35,446 nt of DNA from Woeseiaceae bacterium (GCA_041608415.1 JBFISV010000001.1:1-35446); one strand, 5' to 3'; shown: positions 5,977 through 31,290, numbered from the stretch's first letter. Translations and numbers: made by a program. The notes: generated by a model not told the origin, from the sequence alone.

Positions 5977-7161
5977 TCAATCGGCGTACTTTTTGGCAAC
6001 CTGGCGGTACGCGTCGCGAAACGACAGGTTTTCTTCCCGTACGAGGCGGTAGGCTTCTGCGGTCGCGTACACGCCGTCGTCGATCTTTATGTTCTCGGGC
6101 AAAAAGCGCACACCGGTCAGGACGAAGGTCATGATGTCCACGCTGTCGACGGCGAGGTCGATGCCGCGAAACAGCGGCGGCTTCAGGCGCTGCAGATCGC
6201 GCTGGTAGCCCGAGGGCAGTTTCGCGGTAATCATGAGCGTCTCGTCGAGGCAGGCCTGCGCCGTTGCCGAAGAGGCGCGCAACAGCTCGAGCACGTCGGG
6301 GTTGCGCTTCTGCGGCATGATCGAGGAGCCCGTTGTGACCTCCGGCGCAAGCGACACATAGGCGAACTCCTGCGTATAAAAGAGCAGCAGGTCCGACGCC
6401 ATGCGGCCGAGGTCCTGCAACAACAAGGTGATCTCGAACAGCACGCCGCTCTCGGCCTTGCCGCGTGACAGCTGCACGGCCGTGACCGGAGATTGCGTAG
6501 TGCCGAAGCCGAGCGTTGCCGTAAGCAGTTCGCGATCGAGGGGCAGGCCCGGCGTCCCGTAACCCGCCGCCGAACCGAGTGGATTCTTGTCGACGCGCCG
6601 GCGGGCCGCGCCGAGGCCGGCGCCGGCATCGGCGAACGCCGCGTCGTAACCGCCGCACCAGAGCGCGACCGACGACGGCATCGCCTGTTGCATATGCGTG
6701 TAGCCCGGTAATGGCAGCTCGCCCTGGCGCTCGGCGAGCGCGCCGATCGCTGCGCGCAGTTCGTCTACACGTGCGCGGAGCACGTCGATGGCATCGCGGA
6801 GGTAGAGGCGCAGCGCGGTCAGTACCTGGTCGTTGCGCGAGCGGCCCAGGTGCAGCCGGCCGCCGGCTGCGCCGATCGCCTCCGTCAGGCGCGTCTCGAG
6901 CGCCGTGTGTACGTCCTCGTCGTCGAGACCGATGCGCCACTCCCCCGCGGCGAACGAGTCGGCCAGCTCGGCAAGGCCGCAGCAGATGGCGTCGCAGTCA
7001 GCCTCGGATATCAGGCCCGCGGATGCGAGCATGCGGGCATGTGCGGTGGACCCGCGGACGTCGTAAGCGACCAGCCGCGCATCGAGGCGGTGGTCCTCGC
7101 CGGCCGTGTAGCGGAGGATGCGCTCGTCGAGCGGCAGCCCCTTGTCCCACAGGCGGCTCAT
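5977..7161 (-). CDS. argH: argininosuccinate lyase (short, Bacteroidetes/Xanthomonas-like type)
   Basis: MSRLWDKGLPLDERILRYTAGEDHRLD..., GRSRNDQV, and fumarate-lyase signature GSSIMPQKRNPD. The ATG at 7159-7161 overlaps the argB stop (ATGA). Confidence 0.92.
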   Translation of the reverse strand: MSRLWDKGLPLDERILRYTAGEDHRLDARLVAYDVRGSTAHARMLASAGLISEADCDAICCGLAELADSFAAGEWRIGLDDEDVHTALETRLTEAIGAAGGRLHLGRSRNDQVLTALRLYLRDAIDVLRARVDELRAAIGALAERQGELPLPGYTHMQQAMPSSVALWCGGYDAAFADAGAGLGAARRRVDKNPLGSAAGYGTPGLPLDRELLTATLGFGTTQSPVTAVQLSRGKAESGVLFEITLLLQDLGRMASDLLLFYTQEFAYVSLAPEVTTGSSIMPQKRNPDVLELLRASSATAQACLDETLMITAKLPSGYQRDLQRLKPPLFRGIDLAVDSVDIMTFVLTGVRFLPENIKIDDGVYATAEAYRLVREENLSFRDAYRQVAKKYAD

Positions 7162-8093
7162 GTCGACCCGCCGCCCTGTTGTTCCGCGGGCGTCAGCGCG
7201 TTGATGTCGTTGACGACCAGCGTGCCCGTGCCCTCGTTCGTGAAGACCTCGAGCAGCAGGCTGTCGGGCATCCGGTAGGAGATGACATGCACGCGCCGAA
7301 CCCCGTTTGCGAGCGCCGCGTCGATTGCCGCTGCTTTGGGTAACATGCCGTCGGCGAGCTTGCCGTCGTCGCGCAATTTGTCGAGTCTCGCGCGGTCGAT
7401 GTAGCTGATGAGCGAGGAGGGGTCGTCGACGTCTTCGAGTATGCCGGCCGCGCCGGTCGAAAGAATCAGTTTTTCGGCATCGAGTTCGGCGGCGATCGCC
7501 GCGGCCACGGTGTCGGCGTTGATGTTGAGCAGGGTTCCGGACTCGTCGCACGACAGCGGGCTGACGACGGGCATGAGCCCGTTGTCGAGCTGTTTTCTGA
7601 TCACATCGGCGTCGACCGCGTCGATGTCGCCGACGAAGCCGTAATCGACGGGGGCCTCGCCCGCACGCACGACGGGAGGGCGACGGTGCGCGCGAATCAG
7701 CCCGGCGTCGACGCCGCTGATGCCGACGGCCGGTATCTGCAGGTCGCGGCACGCGGCGAGGACTCGTGTATTGATCTGCCCGTTCAACACCATCATCGCG
7801 ACATCGAGCGATGCGCCGTCGGTGACGCGGCGGCCGTCGATGAAGGTCGAATCGAGGCCGAGCGCCGCTGCGAGCCGGGTCGACTGGGGACCGCCGCCAT
7901 GCACGAGCACGATGCGGATGCCGACCTGGTGCAGGATACCGACCTGCTCCATGAGTGCCGATGTATCGGCGGCATCCGCAAAAATCTCGCCGCCGGCCTT
8001 GAGGACGAAAACCTTGCCTTTGAAAAGCCTGATGTAGGGGGCGGCGTGCTTCAGCGCCGAAACGACGATCGCCCGGTTCCCTTTGCCGTTCAT
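7158..8093 (-). CDS. argB: acetylglutamate kinase (kinase domain only, no fused GNAT/NAGS domain)
   Basis: Amino-acid kinase motifs FVLKAGGE, VLVHGGGPQ, NINADT. 311 aa. The ATG at 8091-8093 overlaps the argF' stop (ATGA). Confidence 0.9.
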   Translation of the reverse strand: MNGKGNRAIVVSALKHAAPYIRLFKGKVFVLKAGGEIFADAADTSALMEQVGILHQVGIRIVLVHGGGPQSTRLAAALGLDSTFIDGRRVTDGASLDVAMMVLNGQINTRVLAACRDLQIPAVGISGVDAGLIRAHRRPPVVRAGEAPVDYGFVGDIDAVDADVIRKQLDNGLMPVVSPLSCDESGTLLNINADTVAAAIAAELDAEKLILSTGAAGILEDVDDPSSLISYIDRARLDKLRDDGKLADGMLPKAAAIDAALANGVRRVHVISYRMPDSLLLEVFTNEGTGTLVVNDINALTPAEQQGGGST

Positions 8094-9097
8094 GGCGCAG
8101 CCTTGAGCATCTGGTGCAGCACGGCCATTTGCGCGAGCATCCGATTCCTCGCCTCGTGAATGACGATGCTGCGCGGTCCGTCGAGTATGGCATCGCTGAC
8201 GACGACACCGCGTCGGACCGGCAGGCAGTGCATGAAGCGGCAGTCCGGCATCGCCTTCGCGAACCAAGATTCGTCGACGCACCAGTCGAGCAGGGGATTG
8301 CGGAGTTTCTCGTCGGCCAGGCGGTCGCCGTAATGCCGCGTCGAGGACCAGGACTTTGCGTAAATGACGTGCGCGCCCTCCATCGCCGCGCCGCGGTCCT
8401 CGGTTTCGACGATGGATCCGCCGGCATCGGCGGCGGCGCGGCGCGCCTTCGTCATGACCGGCTCCGGCAGCTCGAAGCCCGGCGGTCGCAGCAGCGTGAC
8501 GTCCATGCCGCGCCTCGCGGCCGTGTACAGCGTGGACGCGGGTACGGCCAGCGGCAGCGCCCGCGGGTGGTACGCCCAGCTCAGCACGAACTTGCCGCCG
8601 TTCGCGGGTATGCCGTAGTCGTCGAGGGTTTTCCAGTCGGCGAGGTTCTGGCAGGGATGGCCCATGGCCGACTCCATGTTGATGTACGGCGTATCGATCA
8701 ATGCCGTGAGTGCGTTGAATTCGGTCTCGGCCAGGTCGTGATCGAGATTCTTGCGTTCGGCGAACGCGCGAATCCCGATGGCATCGCCGTACGAGGCGAT
8801 GACGGGCACCGCTTCGCGAATATGCTCGGCTGCAGCGCCATCCATGACGATGCCCGGGCGGGACTCAATGCCGTGAATCGACATTTCGGGCGAGATCACG
8901 AACGAGCCGCCGCCGAGTCGTGTCATGGCCGCCTGGAACGACGCGAGCGTCCTGAGCGACGGGCTGAGGAACAGGAGCGCTAGCACCTTGCCGTTGAGCG
9001 CCTCGGGTTCCGGTCGGGCGTCGAGCCGGTTCGCGAGTTCGAGGAGAGAGCGAATCTCCTCGGTCGAATGGTCGGCAAGGTCGTTAAACGCTTTCAT
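8090..9097 (-). CDS. argF': N-acyl-L-ornithine carbamoyltransferase (ArgF' clade: N-acetyl- or N-succinyl-ornithine transcarbamylase)
   Basis: Aligns by eye along its length with the remembered Xanthomonas AOTCase. Shared motifs: SPSLRT, HPCQ (not the OTCase HPTQ), WAYHP, DVTLL, YAKSW, HCLPVRRG. The start MKAF at 9097 has a GAGG Shine-Dalgarno. The alternative start at 9124 is less likely. Confidence 0.8.
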   Translation of the reverse strand: MKAFNDLADHSTEEIRSLLELANRLDARPEPEALNGKVLALLFLSPSLRTLASFQAAMTRLGGGSFVISPEMSIHGIESRPGIVMDGAAAEHIREAVPVIASYGDAIGIRAFAERKNLDHDLAETEFNALTALIDTPYINMESAMGHPCQNLADWKTLDDYGIPANGGKFVLSWAYHPRALPLAVPASTLYTAARRGMDVTLLRPPGFELPEPVMTKARRAAADAGGSIVETEDRGAAMEGAHVIYAKSWSSTRHYGDRLADEKLRNPLLDWCVDESWFAKAMPDCRFMHCLPVRRGVVVSDAILDGPRSIVIHEARNRMLAQMAVLHQMLKAAP

Positions 9098-10301
9098 GTA
9101 TTTCTGCCTCGTGTAGTCGTGCATGCTGCGGCGGAATCGACGCGAGTGCGTCGGCGAGTCGAGTGACGTGTCGCTCGTCGATGACGAGCGGCGCCAGGAT
9201 GCGGAGCACGCGCGGATCGCCGCTGGTGCCGGTCAGGATGTCGCGCTCGAGCAGCGCGTCGCGAACTTCGCGCGCGGGCCGGTCGCATACGAGTCCGAGT
9301 AACAGCCCCCTGCCGCGGATAGCCCGGACCGGACCGACCACGCAGCATTCGCGAATCTGCGCTTCCCGTGCACGCACGTTGTCGAGCAGCCCCTCGTGTT
9401 CGATTGCCGCGATGACGGCGACGATCGCCGCGCAGGCGAGCGGTCCCCCGCCGAACGTGGTACCGAGGTCGCCCGGGCCGAAGCGCGCGGCGACGTCGTC
9501 GCTTGCGAGCACGGCGCCGCAAGGCATGCCGCCGCCGAGCCCCTTTGCGCTGGTCAGCAAGTCCGGCGCCACGTCGAGGGTCTCGACCGCGAAATACCGC
9601 CCGCAGCGACCCATACCGGACTGGACTTCATCGGCGATCAGGAGAGCGCCGTGTTGCTCCGTCGCGCGCCGCAGAGTCGCTGCGAATTCGGGGGCGAGAT
9701 CGTAGGCGCCGGCGACCCCCTGTACGGGCTCGAAGATCACGGCCGCCACGTCGTCGCCGATCATTTCCCTCGCCGCGTCACAGTCGTCGCGCGGAATGAA
9801 GTCGACGTCGAAGGGTTTCTCCGGGAATCCGTACCAGCGGTCCGAATTCCACGTGGCCGCAGCCGCGGCGGCCGTGCGGCCGTGGAAGCCGTGCTCGATC
9901 GCGAGAATCCTGCGGCGCCCCGTTGCGACCGTCGCCATGCGCAACGCGTTTTCGTTCGCCTCCGCGCCGGAATTGACGAAGAATACGCGGCGCAGGCCGG
10001 CCGGTGCCACGCAGGCCAGAGCGCGGGCAGCCTGCGCGCGGATGTCCGTTGCGACGGCGTTGCTTTGAAACAGCAGTTCACCTGCCTGTTCGCGAATGGC
10101 CTGCGTCAGCCGCGCATGTCCGTACCCCAGCGCTGCAACCGCGTGGCCGCCGTACAGGTCGAGAATCCGCCGGCCGTCGGCGGTGACGATCTCGGCGCCC
10201 GCCGCCGAGGCAATGACGAGCGAGCGTTCTCCGTACACGGGAATCGTAAACTCGTTTTCCACGCACCGTGCATCGAAGCGGTTTTCGGGAGTCGCGACCA
10301 T
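9084..10301 (-). CDS. argD: acetyl/succinyl-ornithine aminotransferase (class III PLP aminotransferase)
   Basis: SGAEANENALRMA, DEVQSGMGRCG, and TSAKGLGGGMP (PLP lysine). The ATG at 10299-10301 overlaps the argC stop (TGATG). The 370-aa Arg-rich N-terminal extension in ORF 9084..11411 is rejected. Confidence 0.88.
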   Translation of the reverse strand: MVATPENRFDARCVENEFTIPVYGERSLVIASAAGAEIVTADGRRILDLYGGHAVAALGYGHARLTQAIREQAGELLFQSNAVATDIRAQAARALACVAPAGLRRVFFVNSGAEANENALRMATVATGRRRILAIEHGFHGRTAAAAAATWNSDRWYGFPEKPFDVDFIPRDDCDAAREMIGDDVAAVIFEPVQGVAGAYDLAPEFAATLRRATEQHGALLIADEVQSGMGRCGRYFAVETLDVAPDLLTSAKGLGGGMPCGAVLASDDVAARFGPGDLGTTFGGGPLACAAIVAVIAAIEHEGLLDNVRAREAQIRECCVVGPVRAIRGRGLLLGLVCDRPAREVRDALLERDILTGTSGDPRVLRILAPLVIDERHVTRLADALASIPPQHARLHEAEIHESV

Positions 10302-11377
10302 CAGGTCCACGCCGGCGCCGGGGCCGTGAGACCCGCGGTTTCCGGCAGACCCCACAAGCGGTTCATCCATTGCACCGCTCCGCCAGCCGCGCCCTTGACG
10401 AGATTGTCGATGGTGCTCGTGACGACCAGCGCATCGCCTCCGAGCGCGACGCCGATTCGACAACGATTGCTGGCGACGACGCTTTTGAGGCGTGGCATGC
10501 CGTCCGCGATGTCGACGAACGGCGCATCGCCGTAGGCATTCGAATACGCCGCCCTGAGGGCCGCGATCGAAGTTCCACGAGCGGCCCGGGCCTGCAGGGT
10601 GACATGGATGCCGCGCGCGAACGGCCCCGAATGCGGCACGAAATGGACCCGTGCGTCGACTCCCGACGCGCGCGCTGCAAGCGCCTCGATCTCGGGCGCA
10701 TGGCGGTGTTCGAGCGGCTTGTAGGCGTACACGTTGCTGTGGCGCTCGGGGTGGTGAGTACCGGCCTGCGCCTGCCGCCCCGACCCCGTACTGCCCGTAA
10801 TGCCGCTGACGAAGAGTTCGCCGTCGCTCAAGCCTGCGCGCAGCAACGGCACTGCCGCGAGCAGCACGGCGGTCGCGAAGCAGCCCGGATGCCCGATGTG
10901 CGCGTGGCGCGCGTCTTTGTCGGCATGTTCCGGCAGGCCGCAGAAAAACTGCTCGAGAAGCTCCGGCGCGCCGTGTGCGCAGCCGTAGATCGCCTCGTAC
11001 GCAGACCGATCCGCAAAACGAAAGTCGGCCGAAACGTCGACGACGTGCACGTCGACCTCGCGCCCGGCGGCGGCCGCGAGCGCGCCCTTGACGAGGACCG
11101 CCGACGCGCCGTGCGGCGCGGCGGAAAACAGCGCGAGTCGGCTGCCGCGATCCAGCGACTCGATCCAGTGCCCTTCGCCGCTTTCGTGCGCGACGAACGG
11201 CAGGTCGGGGTATGCGCATTCGAGATGAGGAAATGTCGCTGCAATCGGGTGGCCCGCCCGGCTGTCCGACACCGCGGCGGCCAGCCGCAGCTCGGGGTGC
11301 GATGCAATCAGTCGCAACAGTTCGCCGCCGACGTAACCGGTGGCGCCGAGGACGGCCGCGGGGATCGATGCGCTCAC
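10301..11377 (-). CDS. argC: N-acetyl-gamma-glutamyl-phosphate reductase
   Basis: VSASIPAAVLGATGYVGGELLRL (NAD(P)-binding GxTGYxG); active-site region GHPGCFATA; C-terminal DNLVKGAAGGAVQ. The GTG start at 11375-11377 overlaps the stop of the upstream gene (GTGA). Confidence 0.9.
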   Translation of the reverse strand: MSASIPAAVLGATGYVGGELLRLIASHPELRLAAAVSDSRAGHPIAATFPHLECAYPDLPFVAHESGEGHWIESLDRGSRLALFSAAPHGASAVLVKGALAAAAGREVDVHVVDVSADFRFADRSAYEAIYGCAHGAPELLEQFFCGLPEHADKDARHAHIGHPGCFATAVLLAAVPLLRAGLSDGELFVSGITGSTGSGRQAQAGTHHPERHSNVYAYKPLEHRHAPEIEALAARASGVDARVHFVPHSGPFARGIHVTLQARAARGTSIAALRAAYSNAYGDAPFVDIADGMPRLKSVVASNRCRIGVALGGDALVVTSTIDNLVKGAAGGAVQWMNRLWGLPETAGLTAPAPAWT

Positions 11378-12429
11378 GCCGCGCGTTCCTCGAGCGAGCT
11401 GGCGATCGCATCGCCCAACGCGACGCCGTTCGTCAACGCATTCAGGGCGGGCAGGCCGAGACGCTCGGAAATCTGCTCGATGCCGACGGCATTGTCCGTC
11501 GCCGGGCCCGTCACGATCACGGGTTCGATGCCGAACTCGTCGCGCAGGATCTTGGCGCCGCCCCACGCGGAAACCGGGTCGTTCGCGCACAGGACGACCG
11601 CGGTCAGCGCTGCGCGTATGGCGGCGTCGGCCAGGATTGCTTCGACGCCGTAAGAACCGAGCAGGCCGTCCCCGAGTTCGAGAACGATGACGTCGGGCCC
11701 GTTCCGCGCGAGGCCGCTCAGCAACGCGCGCGTCAGGGCCGGCCCGTTCTCGGCCGTCGTCGTGACGACGCCGAGATCGGAGAAGATCATCGTTTGCTGC
11801 GCGCCCGCATCCTCCATCGCGAGAATGTCGCGCCGCAATGACACGCCGGTGGCCTTGCAGGCCGCGACGCGCAGGCCGAGGTGCCGCAATCGCCCGACGA
11901 TCGCACAGGCCGCCGCGGTCTTGCCGGAATCCATGCAGGTGCCGGCGAGCGCGACGACCGGCACGCCGCGCGTGTCGAGCTCGGCCTCGGGGTCCAGCGC
12001 ACTCTCGCCGACCCGCGCCGGCACACCGATGCGTTCACCCAGGTACGGGAAATCCAGCACCGTGCCGAGAACCTCGCAGTTGAACGGCGGACCGACGTCC
12101 GGATTCGCGGAGTCGCAAATGCCGAGCACGCCGCCGATGTTCAGCAGCTGAATCGTGTCACCGACGCGTAGCGTGAGCGGCAGATGACCGGAGTACCCGC
12201 GCAGGGCGTTGCGGTGACCGAGTGCGCCGACGACGATGTCGCCCTGGTTGACGCTGGCCATGCGTCCCGAGGTCAGTTCGAGCAGGTTGTAACGCGTCTT
12301 GTTGTTGAGGATGCGCACCGCGACGAGCACACCCTCTTCACACGGTATGTCGGCGGACAGGCGTATTTCTCCGCTGACGTTCGCGTGTTGTGCAACGGAG
12401 GCGATCTTGTCGACGAGGACCGGCTTCAT
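11374..12429 (-). CDS. uncharacterised protein with BioD/DUF1611-like P-loop, embedded in the arginine operon
   Basis: 351 aa starting MKPVLVDKIASV. Variant Walker A VVALAGTCMDSGKTAAA (G-x5-GKT, as in the dethiobiotin-synthase-like GTDTxVGKT). Walker-B-like VIVLELGDGL. The N-terminal ~165 aa is unassigned. Its start overlaps the argG stop (ATGA at 12426-12429) and its stop overlaps the argC start. Confidence 0.7.
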   Translation of the reverse strand: MKPVLVDKIASVAQHANVSGEIRLSADIPCEEGVLVAVRILNNKTRYNLLELTSGRMASVNQGDIVVGALGHRNALRGYSGHLPLTLRVGDTIQLLNIGGVLGICDSANPDVGPPFNCEVLGTVLDFPYLGERIGVPARVGESALDPEAELDTRGVPVVALAGTCMDSGKTAAACAIVGRLRHLGLRVAACKATGVSLRRDILAMEDAGAQQTMIFSDLGVVTTTAENGPALTRALLSGLARNGPDVIVLELGDGLLGSYGVEAILADAAIRAALTAVVLCANDPVSAWGGAKILRDEFGIEPVIVTGPATDNAVGIEQISERLGLPALNALTNGVALGDAIASSLEERAA

Positions 12430-13667
12430 GCCGTGCCCCGGCCGGCCCGCGTCTGCAGCGAGCCGGGCAGCGACAGGATACGCGCGTAACCCTCGGCATC
12501 GGCCGGCGTCCATTCACCCGCCGCTTCGCCGTACACGCCGCTCGTCGCGGCGAGCAGCGAGTATGGCGACGTCACGCCGTCGACGAACAGACTGCCCGGC
12601 CTGAGCGTAAACGCAACGCTTCCCGAGACGCGCCTCTGGGACGACACGAGCATCGCCTCGATGTCGGCGCACACGAGGTCGAGCTGTTTGCCTTCGTGCA
12701 CGAGGTCGCCGTAGATCGCGGCGACGCCGTCTTTGACCCGGGCCTGTTGCGCGCTCAGGACCAGTTTCTCCAGTTCGCGGTGGGCGGCGATCAGGGTGAT
12801 CGCGGCCGGCGCCTCGAACGCCACGCGGCCTTTCGTCCCCAGCACCGTATCGCCGAGATGGATACCGCGGCCGATCGCGTAGCGTCCGGCAAGCGCTTCG
12901 AGCGCCTCGATGAGTTCGACCGGCGACATGGGCACGTCGTCGAGGGCGACCGGGATGCCGCGCTCAAACTCGAGCGTATGCCGGGATTCGGGCGCCGGAT
13001 CGTCGAACGCGTTCGCAGAAAGCACCCAGGCATCTTCGGGCAGCGAGCTCTCCGACGTCAGCGTTTCGCGACCGCCGATCGTAATTCCCCAGAGCCCGCG
13101 GTTCGTCGAGTATTCGGACCCCTGCGCCGGTAACGGCAGGCCGCGCTCCTGCAGATACTCGAGCTGCGCCTCGCGCATCCAGCGGTGGTCGCGAACCGGT
13201 GCGAGAACCTCGAGACCCGGGCTCAGCGTCCGGAGCGCGACCTCGAAGCGGACCTGGTCGTTGCCCGCCGCGGTGCAGCCGTGCGCCACCGTCGTGGCGC
13301 GCCGATCGGCGGCGACCTGCGCGAGGCGCTCTGCCTGCAGCCCGCGCTCGGCGCCTACGCACAGCGGATAGGCCTGGCCACGCAGCACGTTGCCGGCGAT
13401 GAGGTAACGGATCACGGCATCGAAAAAATCCTGCTTGCCGTCGATCAGGATGTGCTCGATCGCACCGAGTGCCAGCGCGCGTTCCTCGAGCGCGAGCGCG
13501 GCGGCCGCGTCCAGTCCGCCCGTGTCGACCGTCGCCGTTACGACGTCGCGGCCATAGGTTTCCGTGAGCCACGGCACGCAGAAGGACGTATCGAGGCCGC
13601 CCGAAAAGGCGAGAATGATCGGCGAGTCGTTCGCCGTTGTATCGGTTACGGGCAGGTCGCTGCTCAC
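12426..13667 (-). CDS. argG: argininosuccinate synthase
   Basis: ATP-PPase motif ILAFSGGLDTS; HGCTAAGNDQVRFE; STNRGLWG. The GTG at 13667 is preceded by GGAG at a 6-nt spacing. An alternative GTG lies at 13679. Confidence 0.9.
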   Translation of the reverse strand: MSSDLPVTDTTANDSPIILAFSGGLDTSFCVPWLTETYGRDVVTATVDTGGLDAAAALALEERALALGAIEHILIDGKQDFFDAVIRYLIAGNVLRGQAYPLCVGAERGLQAERLAQVAADRRATTVAHGCTAAGNDQVRFEVALRTLSPGLEVLAPVRDHRWMREAQLEYLQERGLPLPAQGSEYSTNRGLWGITIGGRETLTSESSLPEDAWVLSANAFDDPAPESRHTLEFERGIPVALDDVPMSPVELIEALEALAGRYAIGRGIHLGDTVLGTKGRVAFEAPAAITLIAAHRELEKLVLSAQQARVKDGVAAIYGDLVHEGKQLDLVCADIEAMLVSSQRRVSGSVAFTLRPGSLFVDGVTSPYSLLAATSGVYGEAAGEWTPADAEGYARILSLPGSLQTRAGRGTA

Positions 13668-13700: not shown

Positions 13701-14156
13701 TTATCGAGAGGCCAGCGCGCGCTCGATTTTCGACATCAGGAACTTCTGACCGCTGGCCGAGGGCGTCGCGACGAATACCGTGTCGTCGCCGCCGATGTTG
13801 CCGACGATCTCGGGCCAGCCGCTGCGATCGAGCGCCAGCGCGACGCGCTGTGCCGCGCCGATCGCGGTCCTGATGACGAGCAGGTTCGAGCCCGCGGGTT
13901 TGGCATTTCTGAGGAGCGCGGCCACCTTCGCGAGTTCCGCGTCGCCGTCGTGGCCGCTGCGCGGCAGTTCATAGCCCGCCGAGGTCTTGATTGCACCGAG
14001 ATCTCTCAGGTCGCGGCTGACGCTGGATTGCGTCACCGAGAGGCCCTGTGAGGTCAGCGCGTCGACGAGCGCCTGCTGGGTCTCGACGGGACCGCGATTC
14101 AGGAGCGCACGAATCACTTTATGGCGGTTGAATTGTTCCGTATGGTTGTTGGGCAT
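13701..14156 (-). CDS. argR: arginine repressor ArgR
   Basis: 151 aa. Winged-helix N-terminus (QQALVDALTSQGLSVTQSSVSRDLRDLG) and C-terminal oligomerisation/arginine-binding domain with the GGDDTVFV motif. First gene of the arg operon. Confidence 0.9.
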   Translation of the reverse strand: MPNNHTEQFNRHKVIRALLNRGPVETQQALVDALTSQGLSVTQSSVSRDLRDLGAIKTSAGYELPRSGHDGDAELAKVAALLRNAKPAGSNLLVIRTAIGAAQRVALALDRSGWPEIVGNIGGDDTVFVATPSASGQKFLMSKIERALASR

Positions 14157-19859: not shown

Positions 19860-20543
19860 ATGTGCGGTCGTTTCGCATTCTATTCCCCGGCCGAGGCAAC
19901 GGCGGCGTTGTTCGGCGTGCGCGGCGCGATGCCGGTCGAGCCGCGCTACAACATCGCGCCGACGCAATTCATTGCCGCGATTCGTACGGCCGACGACGAT
20001 GACCGCGAGCTCGCAATGCTGCGCTGGGGCCTCGTGCCGTTCTGGGCCAAGGATCCGTCCATCGGCAATCGCATGATCAACGCTCGCGCCGAGACCGTCG
20101 CCGAGAAGCCCGCCTTTCGGGCGGCATACCGGCACCGGCGCTGCATCGTGCTGGCCGACGGTTTTTACGAATGGCGCCGCGAGGGCGATGCCAAGACGCC
20201 GTACTTCATCACGCTCGCGACGGGTGGCGCATTCGCGCTCGCGGGCCTGTGGGAGAAGTGGCACGACAAGGACGCGGATGCAGAACTGCAGTCGGCGACG
20301 CTGATTACGACGGCGGCCAACGAGTTCATGGCGGCGGTGCACCATCGCATGCCCATGGTCCTCGAGCCGGACAGGGCGGCGGACTGGCTCGGCGGCGACA
20401 ACGACATGATCGAGACGGCGTCCGACGACTGTCCCGCGCTCACGGCGTGGCCCGTAAGCCGCCGCGTCAACAATGCGCGCAACGAAGGCGAGGAGCTGAT
20501 TTCACCGGCCGGAGAGGAGCTCCGGGCCGACGGTCCGGGCTAG
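19860..20543 (+). CDS. yedK: SOS-response-associated peptidase (SRAP/YedK), abasic-site DNA-protein crosslinking
   Basis: N-terminal MCGRF (Cys2 nucleophile), YNIAPTQ, LRWGLVPFWAK, NARAET, ADGFYEW, HHRMP. GGAG Shine-Dalgarno upstream. Confidence 0.9.
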   Translation: MCGRFAFYSPAEATAALFGVRGAMPVEPRYNIAPTQFIAAIRTADDDDRELAMLRWGLVPFWAKDPSIGNRMINARAETVAEKPAFRAAYRHRRCIVLADGFYEWRREGDAKTPYFITLATGGAFALAGLWEKWHDKDADAELQSATLITTAANEFMAAVHHRMPMVLEPDRAADWLGGDNDMIETASDDCPALTAWPVSRRVNNARNEGEELISPAGEELRADGPG

Positions 20544-22372
20544 TCGGCCGTGCCGGGTTGCCGCCATGGCTGGGTCGCGACCACGAGCGTCCGGGGTCCT
20601 CCGTGCACGCCGAACGCCGTGCCGAGCTCGGTGATCGACAGGCGACGAATATTGCCGAGCCTGGAGCCCAGCGACTCTGCGAGCCGGGATGCGTCACCGG
20701 GGCAAACGGCATGCCCGATCGCGACGTTCAGCGGCGCCGTAGCGTCGACCCGGCGGCCAATGTAGCGCGCAAATTTCTCGATGCGCCGCCCGCGGCCGAG
20801 CAGGAACCCGGCCGTGCCGATACGGCCGTCGCCCGTCGCGCGGATGATCGGCGTCAGCCGCAGCAGATCGGCGATCGTTTTGACATAAGCCGGGATTCGA
20901 CCGCCCCTGACCGCGAACCGGAGGTCGCTGACGATAGCGAAGGCGTTCGTCGCGGGTATGGCTGCTGCGAGGGCCGTGAGCGTTTCGTCCACGTCGAGGC
21001 CCGCGCGCGCGCATTCCGCGGCATAGGCGGCCAGGAGTCCCTGGCCGAGCGACGCGCTGCGCGAGTCGACGACATGGATCCGCCCCGGTGCATCGACGCG
21101 CGCGGCCGCCGCCTTTGCGGCCTGCACGGTGCCGCTCACCGTCGAGGTCACGTTGACGGAAATGACGTCGGGAAAGTGGCTCGCGAGAAACTGGAACTGG
21201 CGTCGAAAATCGCCGGGTGCGGGCTGCGAGGTCGTCGGGTGTACGGGGTTCGTGGCCAGCTCGCCGAAGAATTCCTCAGTGGAGATGCTGACCTTGTCCA
21301 GGTAGCCGCGATCGCCGAACTGTATGCGCATCGGAACCATGTGAATATCCAGCCGTTCCATGTCTTCGTCGGGGATATCGGCTGCCGAGTCGGTGATGAC
21401 GGCAAAGCGGCGCGTCGCATCGTGGCTGCTGACGTGCTGGCGGTGCATGTCGTCCGCCTTCTCGGCACCGACATCGCCGTAGCTGCGTCCGACATCGAAT
21501 ACCTGTTCGGGATCGTCGGTATGTATGTGAATCTTGGCCTTGCGCTTGGTGCCCGCGAGCACGAGAGAGTCGCCGAGCCGGCTCAGGGATTCGCGCAACT
21601 TGCGCCGATCGATGTCGCTGCCGGTAACGATGCATTCGGTGCAGTAGCGGAACGCGGATTCCTCGCCCGCCGCCGAGGTCTCGAACGACAGTTGTTCCTG
21701 AAGCCCCCTGGCGACGTCCGGTTGCGGCGCAACTCGCCCGTCCACGATGAACTCGGCCATCCCCGAGATCATCGCGACAAAGCCCTTCGCGCCCGCGTCG
21801 ACGACGCCGGCTTTCCTGAGCACCTCGAGCTGCTGCGGCGTTTCGGCGAGTGCCGCTTCGATCCGCTGCAATGCCTCCGTCATGACGGGTCTGAAGTCCT
21901 GCTGCGCGTGGTCGATCGCCTGGCGCCGCACGCTGTCGGCGAAGGCGGCAATGACTGAAAGAATCGTGCCTTCGCGAGGCTCCGAGAGCGCGTCATGGGC
22001 GTATTCGCTGCCGAGCGTCACGGCATTGCTGAAGGTGTAGGGCGTGAAGCGGCTCATCTCGCCGGCCGAGTCGCTGAGGCCCTGGAAAAACTGCGCCAAT
22101 ATTGCTCCCGAATTGCCGCGTGATGCGTCGAGCAGCGCATCCGCAACGGCGGCGAGCAGCGTGCCGAGGTGCGGATCGGTGTCGCGCTCGAGAACGGCCA
22201 GCACGGCCGCCAGCGACAGGCTCAGGTTCGTCCCGGTGTCGCCGTCGGCGACCGGGAAGACATTGATGCGGTTCAGGAGATCCTGCTGTTCGATGACCCT
22301 GTGGATTCCGGAGACCAGCGCCTGGGCGAGCTCCCTGCCCGCAATGTGGGTGGACGATCGCGCGCCGCTCAA
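20540..22372 (-). CDS. DhaL/Dak2 domain fused to DegV (FakB-like) fatty-acid-binding domain
   Basis: 610 aa. The N-terminal ~200 aa carry the Dak2 motif VADGDTGTNL and GNSG. The C-terminal ~290 aa carry DegV hallmarks FAVITDSAADIP, TSQPAPGDF, VTSTVSGTVQAA. Confidence 0.8.
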   Translation of the reverse strand: MSGARSSTHIAGRELAQALVSGIHRVIEQQDLLNRINVFPVADGDTGTNLSLSLAAVLAVLERDTDPHLGTLLAAVADALLDASRGNSGAILAQFFQGLSDSAGEMSRFTPYTFSNAVTLGSEYAHDALSEPREGTILSVIAAFADSVRRQAIDHAQQDFRPVMTEALQRIEAALAETPQQLEVLRKAGVVDAGAKGFVAMISGMAEFIVDGRVAPQPDVARGLQEQLSFETSAAGEESAFRYCTECIVTGSDIDRRKLRESLSRLGDSLVLAGTKRKAKIHIHTDDPEQVFDVGRSYGDVGAEKADDMHRQHVSSHDATRRFAVITDSAADIPDEDMERLDIHMVPMRIQFGDRGYLDKVSISTEEFFGELATNPVHPTTSQPAPGDFRRQFQFLASHFPDVISVNVTSTVSGTVQAAKAAAARVDAPGRIHVVDSRSASLGQGLLAAYAAECARAGLDVDETLTALAAAIPATNAFAIVSDLRFAVRGGRIPAYVKTIADLLRLTPIIRATGDGRIGTAGFLLGRGRRIEKFARYIGRRVDATAPLNVAIGHAVCPGDASRLAESLGSRLGNIRRLSITELGTAFGVHGGPRTLVVATQPWRQPGTAD

Positions 22373-26143: not shown

Positions 26144-27064
26144 TCAGTGGCTGCGCTCGACGATGTAGCGCGCAACGCAGCGCAGCGGCTCGGCCGCCGG
26201 CCCGACGACGCCGAGTTCCGCTTCTGCGCCGGCCACGAGTTCCTCACATCGCGCGATCGACGCGCGCTCGCCGAAAAGCAAGGGGTAGGTCGCCTTGCGC
26301 AGGCCGAGATCCGAGCCTCGCGGCTTGCCGATAATCGCGGTCTCGCCCTGGATGTCCAGCAGGTCGTCGCGAATCTGGAAGGCGACGCCGACCTTGCGCG
26401 AGAAGGCATCGAGCGCGCGCGAATGACTCGCCGGCAGATCGGGATCGAGCAGGCAGGCCGACATCACCGCTGCATGGATCAACGCGCCGGTCTTGAGCGC
26501 GTACATGTGCTCGACCTCGGCGGCGCTCAGCGAGCGGCCTTCCGCAGACAGGTCGATGGACTGGCCGCCGGTCATGCCGATCGAGCCGCAGGCGTCTGCA
26601 ATCAGCCGCACCAGCTTCGTGCGGATGTCAGCGGCCACGGGCTCGCAGTCGGCGAGCACCGAAAACGCAAGCGGCTGCAGTGCGTCGGCGGCGAGAATCG
26701 CCGTCGCCTCGTCGAAGGCGACGTGCACGGTCGGTTTGCCGCGCCGCAGGTCGTCGTCGTCCATCGCGGGCAGGTCGTCGTGCACCAGCGAGAACGCGTG
26801 TATGAGTTCGATCGATGCGGCCGGCGCATCGAGCAGGTCTTCGGCAATGCCGACGCATTCGCCGGCCGCGTAGACGAGCATGGGCCGAACGCGCTTGCCA
26901 CCGTTGAAGACCGCGTAACGCATCGCCTCGTGCAGGCGCTCGGGCTGCTCCTCCGCGCTCGGCAGCGATGCATCGAGTTTTCGGGTGACTCGCTCGAGGT
27001 AATGGTCCAGGCGGTCGCGAAACTGCGCGTACAAAGCGTTCCCCGGGGCTTCGACAAGGGCCAT
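26144..27064 (-). CDS. ispA: (2E,6E)-farnesyl diphosphate synthase
   Basis: First Asp-rich motif LVHDDLPAMDDDDLRRGKPT; second motif FQIRDDLLD; GKRVRP near the N-terminus. Confidence 0.9.
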   Translation of the reverse strand: MALVEAPGNALYAQFRDRLDHYLERVTRKLDASLPSAEEQPERLHEAMRYAVFNGGKRVRPMLVYAAGECVGIAEDLLDAPAASIELIHAFSLVHDDLPAMDDDDLRRGKPTVHVAFDEATAILAADALQPLAFSVLADCEPVAADIRTKLVRLIADACGSIGMTGGQSIDLSAEGRSLSAAEVEHMYALKTGALIHAAVMSACLLDPDLPASHSRALDAFSRKVGVAFQIRDDLLDIQGETAIIGKPRGSDLGLRKATYPLLFGERASIARCEELVAGAEAELGVVGPAAEPLRCVARYIVERSH

Positions 27065-27150
27065 AAGCCTACACGATTTGCCGCGCGGCGCACGGGCGCG
27101 GACGACGACAGGCTGGCTCCGGGGCGCGCGGCGCCGCGCACGGTCTGGGC

Positions 27151-27156
27151 TATAAT
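27151..27156 (+). promoter_or_regulatory. possible -10 element (TATAAT) for the mevalonate operon
   Basis: A perfect TATAAT 33 nt upstream of the mvaD ATG, in an otherwise very GC-rich divergent spacer. No convincing -35 at 17-bp spacing. Confidence 0.3.
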
Positions 27157-27188
27157 TCGCGTCCTTTCGAATACACGGTCAGTAGTGG

Positions 27189-28151
27189 ATGCAGGCGATT
27201 GCCAGGGCGCAGCCGAACATTGCCCTCATCAAGTATTGGGGCAAGCGCGACCGTGCGCTGAATTTGCCGGCCGTCGGTTCGATATCGATCACGCTCGCCG
27301 ACCTCTATACCGACATGGACGTGAAATTCGATGCCGCACTCGCAGCGGACCGGCTCACGCTGAACGGCGACGAAGAGGCCGCGATGCTGCCGCGCGTCAG
27401 CCGCTGTCTCGACACCGTGGCGGGATCGGGGCGAGCCGCCGCGCGCGTCGAGAGCCACTCTAATTTTCCGGTTGCAGCCGGACTCGCATCGTCGGCATCG
27501 GCATTCGCGGCGCTGGTTGTCGCTGCATCGGGCGCGGCCGGGGGGCAACGGCCGACGGACGAACTGGCGCGCCTCGCGGGCCGCGCGTCGGGATCCGCGG
27601 CGCGCTCGCTGTACGGCGGCTTCGTGGAGCTCGGCTTGAACGGCGACGGCATCGAGGTGGCGACCCTGCTCGCAGCCGAAGCGTGGCCGCTGGCCGTCGT
27701 CGTCGCCGTGACCGACACGGGTGCGAAGCCTGTCGGCTCCGGCGATGCCATGGAAATCAGCCGCAGGACGTCGCCCTTCTACGGCCGCTGGATCGACGAT
27801 CAGCCGCGTGACCTCGCGACGGCGCGTGCGGCCATTCTCGCCCGCGACTTAGAGGCGCTCGGCGTCGTTGCCGAGCACAACTGCCTCAAGATGCACTCCG
27901 TCATGTGGTCGTCGCGGCCACCCATCGTGTACTGGAACGCCGCGACGCTTGCGTGCATGCACGCCGTTCGCGAACTGCGATCCAGCGGTGTCGGCGCATT
28001 CTTCACGATCGACGCCGGGCCACAGGTCAAGGCCGTGTGCCCGGGCGCCGACGCGCCTCGCGTGCGCGCGGCGTTCGAATCGATCCCGGGAGTCGCTGCA
28101 GTGTTGACGAGCGGCCTCGGCGGTGGCGCGCGCCTGACGGCGCGGCGATGA
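27189..28151 (+). CDS. mvaD: diphosphomevalonate decarboxylase
   Basis: PNIALIKYWGKRD; GHMP motif AAGLASSASAFAAL; GSGSAARS-like RASGSAARSLYGGF; FTIDAGPQV. Confidence 0.9.
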   Translation: MQAIARAQPNIALIKYWGKRDRALNLPAVGSISITLADLYTDMDVKFDAALAADRLTLNGDEEAAMLPRVSRCLDTVAGSGRAAARVESHSNFPVAAGLASSASAFAALVVAASGAAGGQRPTDELARLAGRASGSAARSLYGGFVELGLNGDGIEVATLLAAEAWPLAVVVAVTDTGAKPVGSGDAMEISRRTSPFYGRWIDDQPRDLATARAAILARDLEALGVVAEHNCLKMHSVMWSSRPPIVYWNAATLACMHAVRELRSSGVGAFFTIDAGPQVKAVCPGADAPRVRAAFESIPGVAAVLTSGLGGGARLTARR

Positions 28152-29074
28152 AACGGCTGCGAAGCAGCGCGCCGGGCAAGGTCGTGTTGTCGGGCGAATA
28201 CGCCGTTCTCGACGGCGCTCCCGCCGTCTCGATGGCCGTGAACCGGCGCGCCGTCGTGACTCTCGATGCGGCCGCCACGGCGGCGATTTCCTCGCTCGGG
28301 CTCCGCGGGAAGACGGATACGCGCCTGTTCGACGCCGTGCAAACGGCATGGTCGCTTGCACCCTGGGAGGGCGCCGCGGTTCTCGATACGCGGGCGTTCG
28401 CGGATCCGGCGTCCGGCAGGAAATTCGGCATCGGCTCGAGCGCGGCCCTGGCCGCGGCGCTCGCGGCGGCATTCGCGCCGAGCGGCACTGCGGAGGAAGA
28501 ACTGTTCGCCGTCGCGCGGCGGGCGCATCGCGAGTTTCAACGGGACACGGGCAGCGGTGTCGATGTCGCGACCAGCGTCTTCGGCGGCCTCATCGAGTAC
28601 ATCATCGACGAGAGCCCGCGCCGTCTGACCTGGCCCCGGGATCTGTGCTTCGCGCTGCTGTGGAGCGGCGAGCCCGCGAACACCGCGCAGAAGCTCGCGC
28701 GCCTGGAGGCGGCCCCGAAGGCAGCCAGCCGCAGCGCGCTCGGCGCGGCCGCGGCGCGCGTCGCGGCGGCCTGGGCCGGCGGCGATGCGGCAAGGCTCCT
28801 CGGCGAGTATCGTGACTATTTGCACGCTCTGCGGTCGTTCGATGTTGACCATGGTCTCGGCATATTCGATGCTGGTCACGATGCTCTTCTGCGCGCAACA
28901 CAAACATCCGATCTCGTCTACAAACCCTGCGGCGCCGGCGGCGGCGACATCGGCATCGTTTTCGGCCTCGAAGAAGGGGCTGTCAGGGCATTCTGCGCCA
29001 CGGCCGCGTGCCTCGGCTTTCGCCCGCTCGACATGACGATGGAGACCGCGGGCGTGCGGGTTACCGGCGTATGA
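28148..29074 (+). CDS. phosphomevalonate kinase (GHMP family)
   Basis: SAPGKVVLSGEYAVLDG, GIGSSAALAAAL, KPCGAGGGD. The ATG overlaps the mvaD stop (ATGA at 28148-28151). The function is assigned by position as the third GHMP kinase of the cluster. Confidence 0.75.
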   Translation: MKRLRSSAPGKVVLSGEYAVLDGAPAVSMAVNRRAVVTLDAAATAAISSLGLRGKTDTRLFDAVQTAWSLAPWEGAAVLDTRAFADPASGRKFGIGSSAALAAALAAAFAPSGTAEEELFAVARRAHREFQRDTGSGVDVATSVFGGLIEYIIDESPRRLTWPRDLCFALLWSGEPANTAQKLARLEAAPKAASRSALGAAAARVAAAWAGGDAARLLGEYRDYLHALRSFDVDHGLGIFDAGHDALLRATQTSDLVYKPCGAGGGDIGIVFGLEEGAVRAFCATAACLGFRPLDMTMETAGVRVTGV

Positions 29075-31290
29075 GCGACTCGCGACTCGCCGGATTCTAC
29101 CGGCTCACGAGCGACGCGCGCGTCGATGAACTCGAGCGACGCGGCTGGCTGTCGCGCGAGGACGCCCGCATGCTCAGGGACGGAGGGCACCTGCTGTCGG
29201 TGGGCGCGGCCGACAAGATGATCGAGAACGTCATCGCGAATTTCGGCCTGCCGCTGGCCGTCGCCCCGAATTTTCTCGTCAATGACTGCGACCGCCTGGT
29301 GCCGCTGGTCGTCGAGGAGCCCTCGATCGTCGCCGCGCTCAGCGCATCGGCACTGCTCGCGCGCGCTTCCGGCGGCTTCGAGGCGCGTTGCGACGAATCC
29401 CTCGCAATCGGGCAGGTCCACCTGGCGGGGCTCGGCGACCCGGACGCCGCGATCGAGGCGATCGCGTCCGCCAAGACGTCGCTGCTTGAAACGGCGAACG
29501 CGGTTCACCCGCGGCTCGCACGCCGCGGCGGCGGCGTGCGCGACATCGAGGCGCGCTCGCTCGACCTCGAAGACGGCGGCCGTGCGCTGGCAATACACCT
29601 GCTCGTCGATACCTGCGACGCGATGGGCGCGAATCTGGTCAACACGATCTGCGAGGCGCTTGCGCCGGAGCTTGCGCGGCTGTGCGAAGCCCGCGTCGTG
29701 ATGTGCATCCTCTCGAACCTCACCGACCGCTCGCTGGTTTCGGCGCGGGTTCGCTACCGGTGTGCCGATCTCGGCGTCGACGACAGGGCTGCGAGACGGG
29801 CACGGGACGCGATCGTGCTGGCGAACGAGATCGCCTCGGTCGATCCGTACCGGGCGGCGACGCACAACAAGGGCATCATGAATGGTATCGACGCGCTCGC
29901 GATCGCGACGGGCAACGACTGGCGTGCCCTGGAGGCCGGTGCGCACGCGTATGCGGCGGCCGACGGACGCTATAAGCCGCTCACGCGCTGGTCGGTGAAC
30001 GGCTCGGGCGATCTCTGCGGAAAAATCGAATTACCGCTCAAGGTCGGCATTGTCGGCGGCACGCTCGAGGCCAATCCCGCAGCGGCCATCGGACTCGCGA
30101 TCAGCGGCGCACGGTCGGCGCGTGAACTCGCCGAGCTCATGGCGGCAACCGGGCTCGCGCAGAATTTCGCCGCATTGCGCGCACTCGTGACGACCGGCAT
30201 ACAGCAGGGGCATATGCGCCTGCATGCACGCAGTGTCGTCGCCGCGAGCGGAGCCCCGGCCGGGCTGTTCGACGAAGTGGTCGCAGAACTCGTTGCGAGC
30301 GGCGAGGTCAAGGAATGGAAAGCGCGGGAAATACTCGCAGAGATCCAGGCTGCGGCAGAGCCCGCAGAGGGTGCATCCGCCGCCGGCAAGGTCATCCTGC
30401 TGGGTGAGCACGCGGCGGTTTACGGCAGGCACGCGCTTGCGCTGCCGATCGAGCGCGCGGTCATTGCGAGCGCAGCGCAAAGCCCCGTATCGACGGTCAC
30501 GATTGCCGCCTGGGGCGTGCACGATGAGATTCGACGCGGCACCGACATCGGCGACGCCATCTTGCTGATTGCCGGGGAACTCGGCATCGCCGACAGGCAT
30601 TTCGCGCTGCAGGTGACGCCATGCCTGCCGCGCGCAATGGGCCTCGGTTCTTCGGCTGCGTTCGCGGTCGCAATCACCCGCGCGCTCGGTCGCGCGTTCG
30701 GCGTTGCGGCGGGGGACGAACGCGTCAACGCAATCGCGTTCGAATGCGAAAAGCTCGCGCACGGCACACCTTCCGGCGTCGACAATACGGTTGCAACCTA
30801 TGCGGCACCGATGCTGTTCCGGGCCGGCGAATCGCTGGCCGGGAAGGTGCTCGAACTCACGGAGCCGCCTCCGCTCGTCGTTGCGTGCAGTACGAGCCCG
30901 GGCTCGACGTTCGAACAGGTGGCCGGCGTTCGCGCCCGCCGCGAGGCCGAGACCGTTCGCTACGAGGCGCTGTTCGACCGCATCGACGAGCTGACGCTCG
31001 CGGCCGCCGACGCATTGGTAGCGGCAGACTACGCGGGGCTCGGCCGGCTGCTGAATATCGGCCACGGACTGTTGAACGCGCTCGAGGTGTCCACGCCCGA
31101 ACTCGAGCGCATGGTCGCCATTGCGCGCAGCGCCGGCGCACTCGGCGCGAAACTGACGGGCGCGGGCGGCGGCGGATCGATCGTTGCGCTGTGCCCCGGT
31201 CGGGTCGGCGCCGTTCGCGAGGCTCTGCACGCGGCCGGTTTCCGCACAATTGCGCTTGCGAGCCCCCGGGAACCCGATGATGACGAATGA
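29071..31290 (+). CDS. bifunctional class II HMG-CoA reductase / mevalonate kinase fusion
   Basis: 739 aa, single uninterrupted frame. The N-terminal ~430 aa carry class II HMGR motifs EEPSIVAA, DAMGANLVN, ATHNKGIMNGIDA, VGIVGGT, GHMRLHARS. A short linker AAAEPAEGAS follows. The MVK motifs are GKVILLGEHAAVYG, GLGSSAAFAVA, KLTGAGGGGS. No in-frame ATG/GTG/TTG near the junction (~30350-30400). The ATG overlaps the PMK stop (ATGA). Confidence 0.85.
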   Translation: MSDSRLAGFYRLTSDARVDELERRGWLSREDARMLRDGGHLLSVGAADKMIENVIANFGLPLAVAPNFLVNDCDRLVPLVVEEPSIVAALSASALLARASGGFEARCDESLAIGQVHLAGLGDPDAAIEAIASAKTSLLETANAVHPRLARRGGGVRDIEARSLDLEDGGRALAIHLLVDTCDAMGANLVNTICEALAPELARLCEARVVMCILSNLTDRSLVSARVRYRCADLGVDDRAARRARDAIVLANEIASVDPYRAATHNKGIMNGIDALAIATGNDWRALEAGAHAYAAADGRYKPLTRWSVNGSGDLCGKIELPLKVGIVGGTLEANPAAAIGLAISGARSARELAELMAATGLAQNFAALRALVTTGIQQGHMRLHARSVVAASGAPAGLFDEVVAELVASGEVKEWKAREILAEIQAAAEPAEGASAAGKVILLGEHAAVYGRHALALPIERAVIASAAQSPVSTVTIAAWGVHDEIRRGTDIGDAILLIAGELGIADRHFALQVTPCLPRAMGLGSSAAFAVAITRALGRAFGVAAGDERVNAIAFECEKLAHGTPSGVDNTVATYAAPMLFRAGESLAGKVLELTEPPPLVVACSTSPGSTFEQVAGVRARREAETVRYEALFDRIDELTLAAADALVAADYAGLGRLLNIGHGLLNALEVSTPELERMVAIARSAGALGAKLTGAGGGGSIVALCPGRVGAVREALHAAGFRTIALASPREPDDDE

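Follow-up and report, generated by a model that had tools for sequence, protein, structure and literature searches.

The 35,446-nucleotide stretch of Woeseiaceae bacterium DNA analysed here (GCA_041608415.1 JBFISV010000001.1:1-35446, hereafter the window) carries an arginine operon with the gene order argR-argG-X-argC-argD-argF'-argB-argH, followed by polA, as assigned with Pfam and NCBIfam models. The gene called X encodes a 351-residue two-domain protein that is probably the missing first enzyme of the pathway, an N-acyl-L-glutamate synthase functionally replacing ArgA and ArgJ, and its product is most likely N-succinyl-L-glutamate. Among the scanned open reading frames (ORFs) of the window, Pfam/NCBIfam analysis reports no ArgA or other GNAT acyltransferase, no ArgJ, and no M20 deacylase (ArgE), and the window ArgB is devoid of any fused GNAT/acetyltransferase domain. 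This agrees with the initial annotation, made from the sequence alone, which had listed ArgG, ArgC, ArgD, ArgF', ArgB, and ArgH without ArgA/ArgJ or ArgE, and which had proposed that X might be a non-orthologous replacement for either the first step or the deacylation step. The first half of that proposal is now the best supported, by a preprint prediction for an ortholog of 66% identity and the same synteny; the second is disfavoured because X shares operons with ArgE/DapE-family M20 deacylases, and X as a replacement for ArgE was rejected as the leading interpretation on account of the ArgE-like M20 genes in these operons.

X lies on the minus strand at positions 11374..12429, with an ATG start at 12429 and a stop codon at 11374-11376, as given by ORF translation (351 codons). 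Its start shares bases with the argG stop (ATGA, 12426-12429), and its TGA stop with the argC GTG start (GTGA, 11374-11377), which reproduces the coordinates and the coupling at both ends first reported for this ORF. The guanine-plus-cytosine (GC) content of X at the three codon positions (0.72/0.49/0.84) is like that of the neighbouring genes. A search of a 5.8-billion-protein set returned >7000 homologs, and 1489 clusters, counted as 50% identity representatives, match X at E<=1e-3; the best matches, at 78-92% identity, come from Woeseiaceae metagenome-assembled genomes (MAGs). Together with a confident AlphaFold2 (AF2) model, the codon-position GC, homologs, and clusters establish X as a real gene and no chance ORF.

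Both the GapMind tool and a public preprint already predict, on the same logic, a first-step role for an X-type protein. The GapMind 2026 preprint of Price et al. (bioRxiv 10.1101/2024.10.14.618325, section 11, Appendix 2; hereafter the preprint) predicts an N-succinylglutamate synthase in Steroidobacter denitrificans, a bacterium that grows in minimal medium, yet without recognisable ArgA and ArgE. According to the preprint, the S. denitrificans arg cluster encodes ACG33_RS14135 (UniProt A0A127FCT3), a hypothetical protein with homologs 'virtually always' within arg operons, no genome containing both such a homolog and ArgA. It further reports that Foldseek gives this protein a weak match to the D-glutamate acetyltransferase 7XRJ (e = 1.4e-7, with an rmsd of 5.6 Å), and that the ArgF' proteins encoded beside its homologs have succinyl-type residues at position 92. 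The D-glutamate N-acetyltransferase in question is DgcN, a protein named in the initial annotation in these same terms, and the preprint's citation (PDB 7XRJ) is in line with this. X aligns with the S. denitrificans protein (P0343, ACG33_14140) over 347 residues with 66% identity (477 bits, E 1e-174), and the gene order of that locus, argR-argG-X-argC-argD-argF'-argB-argH...polA, is that of the window. Judged from this identity and the shared gene order, X is the ortholog of the S. denitrificans protein, from a sister family. The two are alike in their full-length identity, their position between argG and argC, the short ArgH, and the non-Glu residue of ArgF', and unlike in that one comes from Steroidobacteraceae and the other from Woeseiaceae, both of one order; functionally, nothing separates them. 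The P0343 entry is labelled 'hypothetical protein ACG33_14140', and UniRef labels it 'DUF1611 domain-containing'. Added by the present analysis are the Woeseiaceae ortholog, the rearranged gene contexts including a cluster of early genes only, a single ArgB fusion, an N-terminal domain without a solved relative, the apparently unspecific nature of the DgcN link, and a match to the catalytic residues of BioD.

The gene-neighbourhood survey suggested in the initial annotation finds X linked to arg genes in Steroidobacterales and in distant loci, with exceptions given below. One genome per GTDB species was scanned with an 11-sequence alignment as the query (a 34-sequence one being too diverse), and at least 589 species contain a relative of X. 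The best 80 of these are all Woeseiaceae or Steroidobacteraceae-like (Steroidobacterales), because the 11-sequence alignment was used; distant relatives were taken from a metagenome scan and from individual look-ups. Essentially all 80 Steroidobacterales loci, where the contig is long enough, have the order argR-argG-X-argC-argD-argF'-argB-argH, which among such close relatives could be due to phylogenetic inertia alone. Distant relatives of 28-49% identity, from metagenomes and from Acidobacteriota, Myxococcota, and Planctomycetota MAGs, are also adjacent to arg genes, in other arrangements. About 30 low-GC loci (28-37% identity) have argG-X-argF'-argH, usually followed by an ArgE/DapE-family M20 gene, which in at least 16 of them comes directly after argH, and sometimes by argS or carAB. 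Five loci, L139, L140, L147, L149, and L155 (a Blastocatellia MAG), show argR-(argG)-X-argC-argD-argF-argB. L156 has X-argC-argD-argB-M20-argR-argG-argH, and its operon, like that of L139, includes an M20 deacylase. At L157, X is accompanied by argC, argD, and argB alone, that is, by the N-acyl steps 1 to 4, and at L089 it pairs with argH. Since the linkage outlasts deep divergence and reshuffling, these comparisons of gene order argue for a functional tie of X to the arginine pathway. No GNAT or ArgJ gene was found in the inspected clusters or in the window, and the Steroidobacterales loci show no M20 gene closer than 10 kb to X.

The family also includes a fusion of X to ArgB, the 626-residue protein P0209, in which an X-family domain lacking its first ~40 residues is joined to an AA_kinase domain. 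It is encoded at L085 8001-9881, and also at L086 and L087, on four contigs in all, where it is a solitary gene with an arginase-family gene in divergent orientation beside it. Another protein, P0185 (687 residues), combines a full X domain with an ArgC-like C-terminal part and may represent either a fusion of a second kind or a read-through from one gene into the next.

The neighbouring carbamoyltransferase points to the nature of the acyl group. Residue 99 of the window ArgF' (nt 8828-8830) is an alanine at the position of Glu92 of the Xanthomonas campestris enzyme, and the best PDB sequence match of this ArgF' is the X. campestris E92A mutant 3L02. Alanine occupies this position in 64/64 Steroidobacterales ArgF' proteins encoded beside X, and the distant X-linked ArgF' proteins have Ile (30), Ala (7), Pro (2), Lys (2), or Met (1), and Glu in none. 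According to Shi et al. 2007, as relayed in the preprint (bioRxiv 10.1101/2024.10.14.618325), the enzyme becomes one for succinylornithine when Glu92 is replaced by A, P, S, or V. Because the X-linked ArgF' proteins are devoid of the acetyl-determining Glu92, the pathway of the window is probably succinyl-based, with an ArgF' predicted to be specific for succinylornithine. NCBIfam names the window ArgF' an N-acetylornithine carbamoyltransferase (NF003384); given the alanine at the acetyl/succinyl-determining Glu92 position, automatic annotation probably names the wrong ArgF' substrate for the whole clade.

The AlphaFold2 model of X, built with the 34-sequence alignment, comprises two domains (predicted local distance difference test, pLDDT, 95.1; predicted template-modelling score, pTM, 0.92). 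According to DSSP analysis of the models, the N-terminal one is beta-rich and spans residues 1-130 (12040..12429, minus strand), a linker then running to about residue 157. The initial annotation had described an unassigned N-terminal domain, and this is what emerges: modelled separately, the domain reaches a pLDDT of 91, but it returns no structural relative in a Foldseek search of the PDB (best E 1.2, template-modelling (TM) score <=0.23), DUF1611 entries included. Ser11, Glu51, Arg73, and Pro84 are invariant in this domain in the X-family alignment, and it may well serve as the substrate-binding domain. The C-terminal domain (residues 157-351; 11377..11961, minus strand) is of the SIMIBI/BioD-like P-loop type, as assigned by Foldseek, hhalign, and profile matches. 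It contains the two motifs picked out at first reading, a Walker A motif, AGTCMDSGKT, located at residues 162-171 (11917..11946, minus strand), with invariant G169, K170, and T171 aligned to BioD G14-K15-T16, and a Walker-B-like VIVLELGDGL at residues 247-256 (11662..11691, minus strand), with invariant E251 aligned to BioD Glu115. Between them, at the end of strand 2, the invariant Lys192 (11854..11856, minus strand) is aligned to the catalytic Lys37 of BioD. K170, T171, K192, and E251 are invariant in 34 diverse members of the X family.

Foldseek analysis of X against the PDB ranks dethiobiotin synthetases first (E 3e-6 to 1.6e-5), followed by FtsY/Ffh, HypB, and MeaB/ArgK-like proteins, with MipZ among the hits as well. 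The DUF1611 structure 2OBN appears at ranks 30 and 47 (E 5e-5 to 9e-5, query-normalised TM score 0.37), and 7XRJ is outside the top 50. The query-normalised TM scores are 0.35-0.40 because only the C-terminal P-loop half of X aligns. The structure prediction and structural search proposed at the outset thus give BioD as the top match for the P-loop half and none for the N-terminal domain; on these models, DgcN provides no more specific a structural argument than BioD does. When the X-family profile was compared by hhalign with Escherichia coli BioD, its sequence having been verified against PDB 1A82, the match (E 5.7e-5, 66% probability) covered ~100 residues and paired K170/T171 with K15/T16, K192 with K37, and E251 with E115, these being the phosphate-binding, Mg2+-binding, and carbamate-activating residues of BioD. 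On inspection of the sequence, the CANDPV motif of X, with an invariant D284, resembles the VANDV of BioD. Neither a Cys nor a His is invariant in the X-family alignment, which also lacks the NKxD motif of GTP specificity.

At the level of sequence families, X reaches no Pfam or NCBIfam cut-off, so that the profile search envisaged in the initial annotation yields no family, in keeping with its remark that X matches no canonical arginine enzyme. For X itself the matches are sub-threshold P-loop hits to MobB (PF03205, 19.5 vs 26.6 bits; TIGR00176, 22.9 vs 76.2 bits) and a 13.0-bit match to PF07755, the DUF1611 C-terminal P-loop, whose cut-off is 25; this match spans ~40 residues about the P-loop. 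GNAT, ArgJ (Ntn-hydrolase), and M20 metallopeptidase domains have no Pfam/NCBIfam match in X. Over the 34 family members, the sub-threshold Pfam matches are to MobB (21), DUF1611_C (20), CbiA (18), and AAA_26 (6). Those to PF07755 (20/34) have a best E of 5e-4, and a few distant members bear a precomputed PF07755 match; the AAA_26 matches (6/34) have a best E of 0.014, and the family lies under both the AAA_26 and the BioD cut-offs. X alone, used as a query, returns no match in a PDB sequence search, and the X-family profile returns P-loop matches only, to FtsY, BioD (E 0.0015-0.05), and MobB. A MobB identity, which some sources give to homologs, was rejected as a P-loop match alone, well under both cut-offs, and membership of the BioD family proper was rejected since X stays below the model cut-off, the profile match to BioD is confined to the P-loop, and the hhalign probability is 66%. 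X was also placed outside DUF1611: its Pfam score is below the cut-off, DUF1611_N (PF17396) has no Pfam match in it, its N-terminal domain differs, and 2OBN comes at rank 30. Of the original assignment to the dethiobiotin-synthase-like/DUF1611 branch, the P-loop part therefore stands, Foldseek and hhalign both giving a BioD/CobQ/DUF1611-like SIMIBI P-loop, and membership of DUF1611 does not.

If X is the first enzyme, it would make N-succinyl-L-glutamate, and ArgB, ArgC, ArgD, and the succinyl-type ArgF' of the coupled operon would process this product. The C-terminal BioD-like P-loop domain would hold the nucleotide part of an acyl donor or cosubstrate, while the novel N-terminal beta domain, with its invariant S11, E51, and R73, would position L-glutamate so that its alpha-amino group attacks an activated succinyl carbonyl. 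The P-loop might bind either the 3'-phospho-ADP part of succinyl-coenzyme A (succinyl-CoA), for a DgcN-like acyl transfer, or ATP, for a succinyl phosphate route resembling that of BioD/CobQ. Succinyl-CoA is slightly favoured as the donor over ATP plus succinate, itself nearly as likely, because of the analogy with DgcN, a D-glutamate acetyltransferase of P-loop fold, and a first-step synthase using succinyl-CoA is a plausible form of the enzyme to which we assign somewhat less than an even chance. Desuccinylation of N-succinylcitrulline would be carried out by an enzyme encoded outside the operon, presumably a desuccinylase of the M20/DapE type, DapE-type being a guess.

Several points weigh against a first-step synthase. 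The published role of ACG33_RS14135 is itself a prediction: the section heading of the preprint says 'predicted', its abstract refers to ten enzymes confirmed by complementation, and its highlights omit this protein (bioRxiv 10.1101/2024.10.14.618325). The structural link to DgcN appears unspecific, given that BioD and the signal recognition particle (SRP) GTPases outrank 2OBN, that the P-loop half alone aligns, and that the N-terminal domain has no relative. The genome-wide absence of ArgA, ArgJ, and ArgE comes from the preprint's analysis of S. denitrificans, the present search covering the 35-kb window. The succinyl assignment follows a single-residue rule, and the residue most frequent in the distant clade, Ile, lies outside those tested by Shi et al. 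2007 as far as the preprint relays them. The fusion of X to ArgB belongs to one 90%-identity cluster, with no second fusion among the 120 best matches; being unique in that set, it was weighted lightly and is no more than suggestive of a tie between X and the step beside ArgB. Finally, some homologs lie outside arg clusters: the Planctomycetota homolog of L158 has no arg neighbour, those of L082-L084 are beside a RimK-like ATP-grasp gene, and X and M20 form two-gene units away from arg genes at L128 (143-2245), L130 (1686-4196), and L133. Such X+M20 units may be make/break pairs for N-acyl-glutamate with another role. The M20 partners at L128, L130, and L133 are not ArgE-like by best match and resemble either the glutamate-carboxypeptidase-like PRK06133 or PRK06446. 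At L083 (267-2378), on short contigs, P0164, a homolog with 39% identity to X, is divergent from a RimK/LysX-like ATP-grasp ligase.

Among the alternatives, the one closest to the first-step synthase keeps the step and changes the chemistry. X could be a succinate(acyl)-L-glutamate ligase dependent on ATP (or GTP), in which an acyl phosphate would be formed and then attacked by the alpha-amine of glutamate, with no acyl-CoA and with the acid freed by the deacylase being recycled. This chemistry is shared by BioD, CobB/CobQ, CTP synthase, and their BioD-like P-loop relatives. Dethiobiotin synthetases are the best structural neighbours of X, the invariant K170/T171, K192, and E251 fall on BioD K15/T16, K37, and E115, CANDPV with its invariant D284 resembles VANDV, and X is recurrently paired with an M20 deacylase, which frees the acid. 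However, the BioD alignment, with a probability of 66%, covers ~100 residues, P-loop proteins that do no more than bind nucleotide-like ligands conserve the Walker residues too, and DgcN, the only characterised glutamate N-acylating enzyme of P-loop fold, is described in the preprint as an acetyltransferase and not a ligase (bioRxiv 10.1101/2024.10.14.618325). We regard the ligase as a tentative, minority possibility, its probability being absolute and lying within that given to the first-step role as a whole. With the same tentative standing, it would represent a new class of first-step enzyme, combining a BioD-like P-loop with a beta-domain fold not seen before, in a protect/deprotect cycle independent of CoA and completed by an M20 deacylase; such a cycle, if real, would extend to Steroidobacterales, Acidobacteriota, Myxococcota, and other phyla.

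Two further readings move X away from the first step altogether. Placed at the deacylation end, it would either stand in for ArgE as an N-acylcitrulline deacylase or act like ArgJ as a transacylase converting N-succinylcitrulline and glutamate into citrulline and N-succinylglutamate. A transacylase would fill both Steroidobacterales gaps together, ArgA and ArgE being both reported missing in S. denitrificans (bioRxiv 10.1101/2024.10.14.618325) and neither being found in the window, and in the distant clade X sits between the late genes argG and argF'/argH. Yet in that same clade an M20 gene directly follows argH in at least 16 loci, the operons of L139 and L156 carry one too, the X of L157 is accompanied by argC, argD, and argB only, and the protein shows no metallohydrolase or Ntn-hydrolase (ArgJ) features and no invariant Cys/His, all of which leaves this placement very improbable. 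Hardly better placed is an accessory nucleoside triphosphatase (NTPase), either a metallochaperone or assembly factor for M20 or a nucleotide-dependent regulator or scaffold, comparable to the SIMIBI proteins HypB, UreG, MeaB, and MinD. The Foldseek matches to HypB, MeaB/ArgK-like proteins, and MipZ, and the X+M20 units outside arg clusters (L128, L130), would fit such a role. A metallochaperone was nevertheless rejected, there being neither an invariant Cys/His metal motif nor an NKxD GTP-specificity motif, and in the Steroidobacterales loci M20 genes are absent from within 10 kb of X; a scaffold would leave unexplained both the missing ArgA step and the anticorrelation with ArgA reported in the preprint. 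Moreover, the N-terminal domain, large, strongly conserved, and with polar residues that are invariant, resembles a ligand-binding site. A carrier pathway of the LysW/ArgX type had also been considered for the operon and was rejected, as ArgB exceeds the TIGR00761 cut-off and gives only sub-threshold matches to the LysW-kinase models, and the gap-free operon leaves no space for a small carrier ORF.

As a synthase, X would differ in fold from the enzymes that perform the step proposed for it, namely ArgA (AA_kinase plus GNAT), short GNAT N-acetylglutamate synthases, ArgJ, and the GNAT N-succinylglutamate synthase of Bacteroidetes. These classical N-acylglutamate synthases have GNAT or Ntn-hydrolase folds and no sequence similarity to X. 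Bacteroidetes-type arg operons have a GNAT gene in the slot by argR/argG/argC that X occupies here, and the kinase-plus-acyltransferase architecture of classical ArgA is echoed by the one fusion of X to an ArgB-like kinase. With DgcN and DUF1611 (7XRJ, 2OBN), X has in common the broad BioD-like/SIMIBI P-loop type and a GTxxxxGK[TS] loop, and also, on the predicted function of X and the preprint's account of DgcN (bioRxiv 10.1101/2024.10.14.618325), a glutamate substrate acylated on nitrogen. Unlike DgcN, X presumably acts on L-Glu, of opposite stereochemistry, with a succinyl group and in an anabolic context; unlike DUF1611, it has no DUF1611_N, scores 13 vs 25 bits with PF07755, and has an N-terminal domain without a PDB relative. 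BioD (1DAE, 1DTS, 1A82) is the best structural match of the C-terminal domain, the equivalents of its Walker A, K37, and E115 being invariant in X, but ~100-215 residues align, at 14-23% identity, and BioD lacks the N-terminal beta domain and acts on other substrates.

If X is the first-step enzyme, glutamate N-acylation has been solved a fourth time, by a structure unrelated to those of ArgA, the short GNAT enzymes, and ArgJ and based on a P-loop NTPase fold. The arginine-pathway gap would then be closed in at least 589 species-level genomes, including those of Woeseiaceae, a family that has been described as abundant in marine sediments. Without such a role, metabolic models would score the organisms that carry X as arginine auxotrophs. 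The annotation of its homologs, now 'hypothetical', 'MobB', or 'DUF1611 domain-containing', would be corrected as well. A Mariana Trench survey reports Woeseiales as significant 'dgcN' carriers (PMC12363236); because UniRef labels the ortholog 'DUF1611 domain-containing', metagenomic dgcN counts may include the X family rather than true D-glutamate acetyltransferases.

The other genes of the operon all lie on the minus strand. The first, argR, encodes the arginine repressor (13701..14156; Pfam Arg_repressor and Arg_repressor_C; TIGR01529, 105.5 bits, under the cut-off of 130.45), and argG encodes argininosuccinate synthase (12426..13667; TIGR00032, 293.7 bits, above cut-off). Downstream of X are argC (10301..11377; TIGR01850, 305 bits), whose GTG start overlaps the X stop, and the N-acylornithine aminotransferase gene argD (9084..10301; Aminotran_3 and acetyl/succinylornithine transaminase models, below cut-offs). 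The N-acylornithine carbamoyltransferase gene argF' (8090..9124; NF003384, 328.7 bits, above the cut-off of 288) may have its true start at an ATG at 9097. It is followed by argB, encoding an N-acylglutamate kinase of 311 residues (7158..8093; TIGR00761, 207.5 bits, above cut-off; AA_kinase domain only), and by argH, encoding a short, 394-residue form of argininosuccinate lyase (5977..7161; TIGR00838, 295 bits, model positions 21-387 of 455). From argG to argH each gene overlaps the next, by between 1 and 41 nt: argC and argD by 1 nt, argD and argF' by 14 or 41 nt according to the ATG chosen, and both argF'/argB and argB/argH by an ATGA. The window ArgH belongs to a class of ~394-401 residues that is devoid of the C-terminal ASL_C2 domain. 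In 58/58 Steroidobacterales loci checked (among L001-L080 and L154) the short ArgH ends in a stop codon, and the S. denitrificans ArgH is likewise short (401 residues, Lyase_1 only). X-adjacent ArgH proteins of other phyla have 456-497 residues with ASL_C2 (L101, L155, L156). This lineage as a whole has an essential lyase truncated at its C-terminus.

Elsewhere in this gammaproteobacterial window, mevalonate-pathway-like genes occupy positions 26144-33324. They encode a polyprenyl synthetase (26144-27064), a diphosphomevalonate decarboxylase-like protein (27189-28151), a NUDIX protein (31184-31858), and an HMG-CoA synthase-like protein (31840-33324); the ORFs 28918-29946 and 30031-31350 in their midst have no Pfam match. 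A 610-residue protein encoded at 20540-22372 contains a Dak2 domain, a FakA middle domain, and a full DegV domain, and it looks like a fusion of two fatty-acid-kinase components, one FakA-like and the other FakB/DegV-like.

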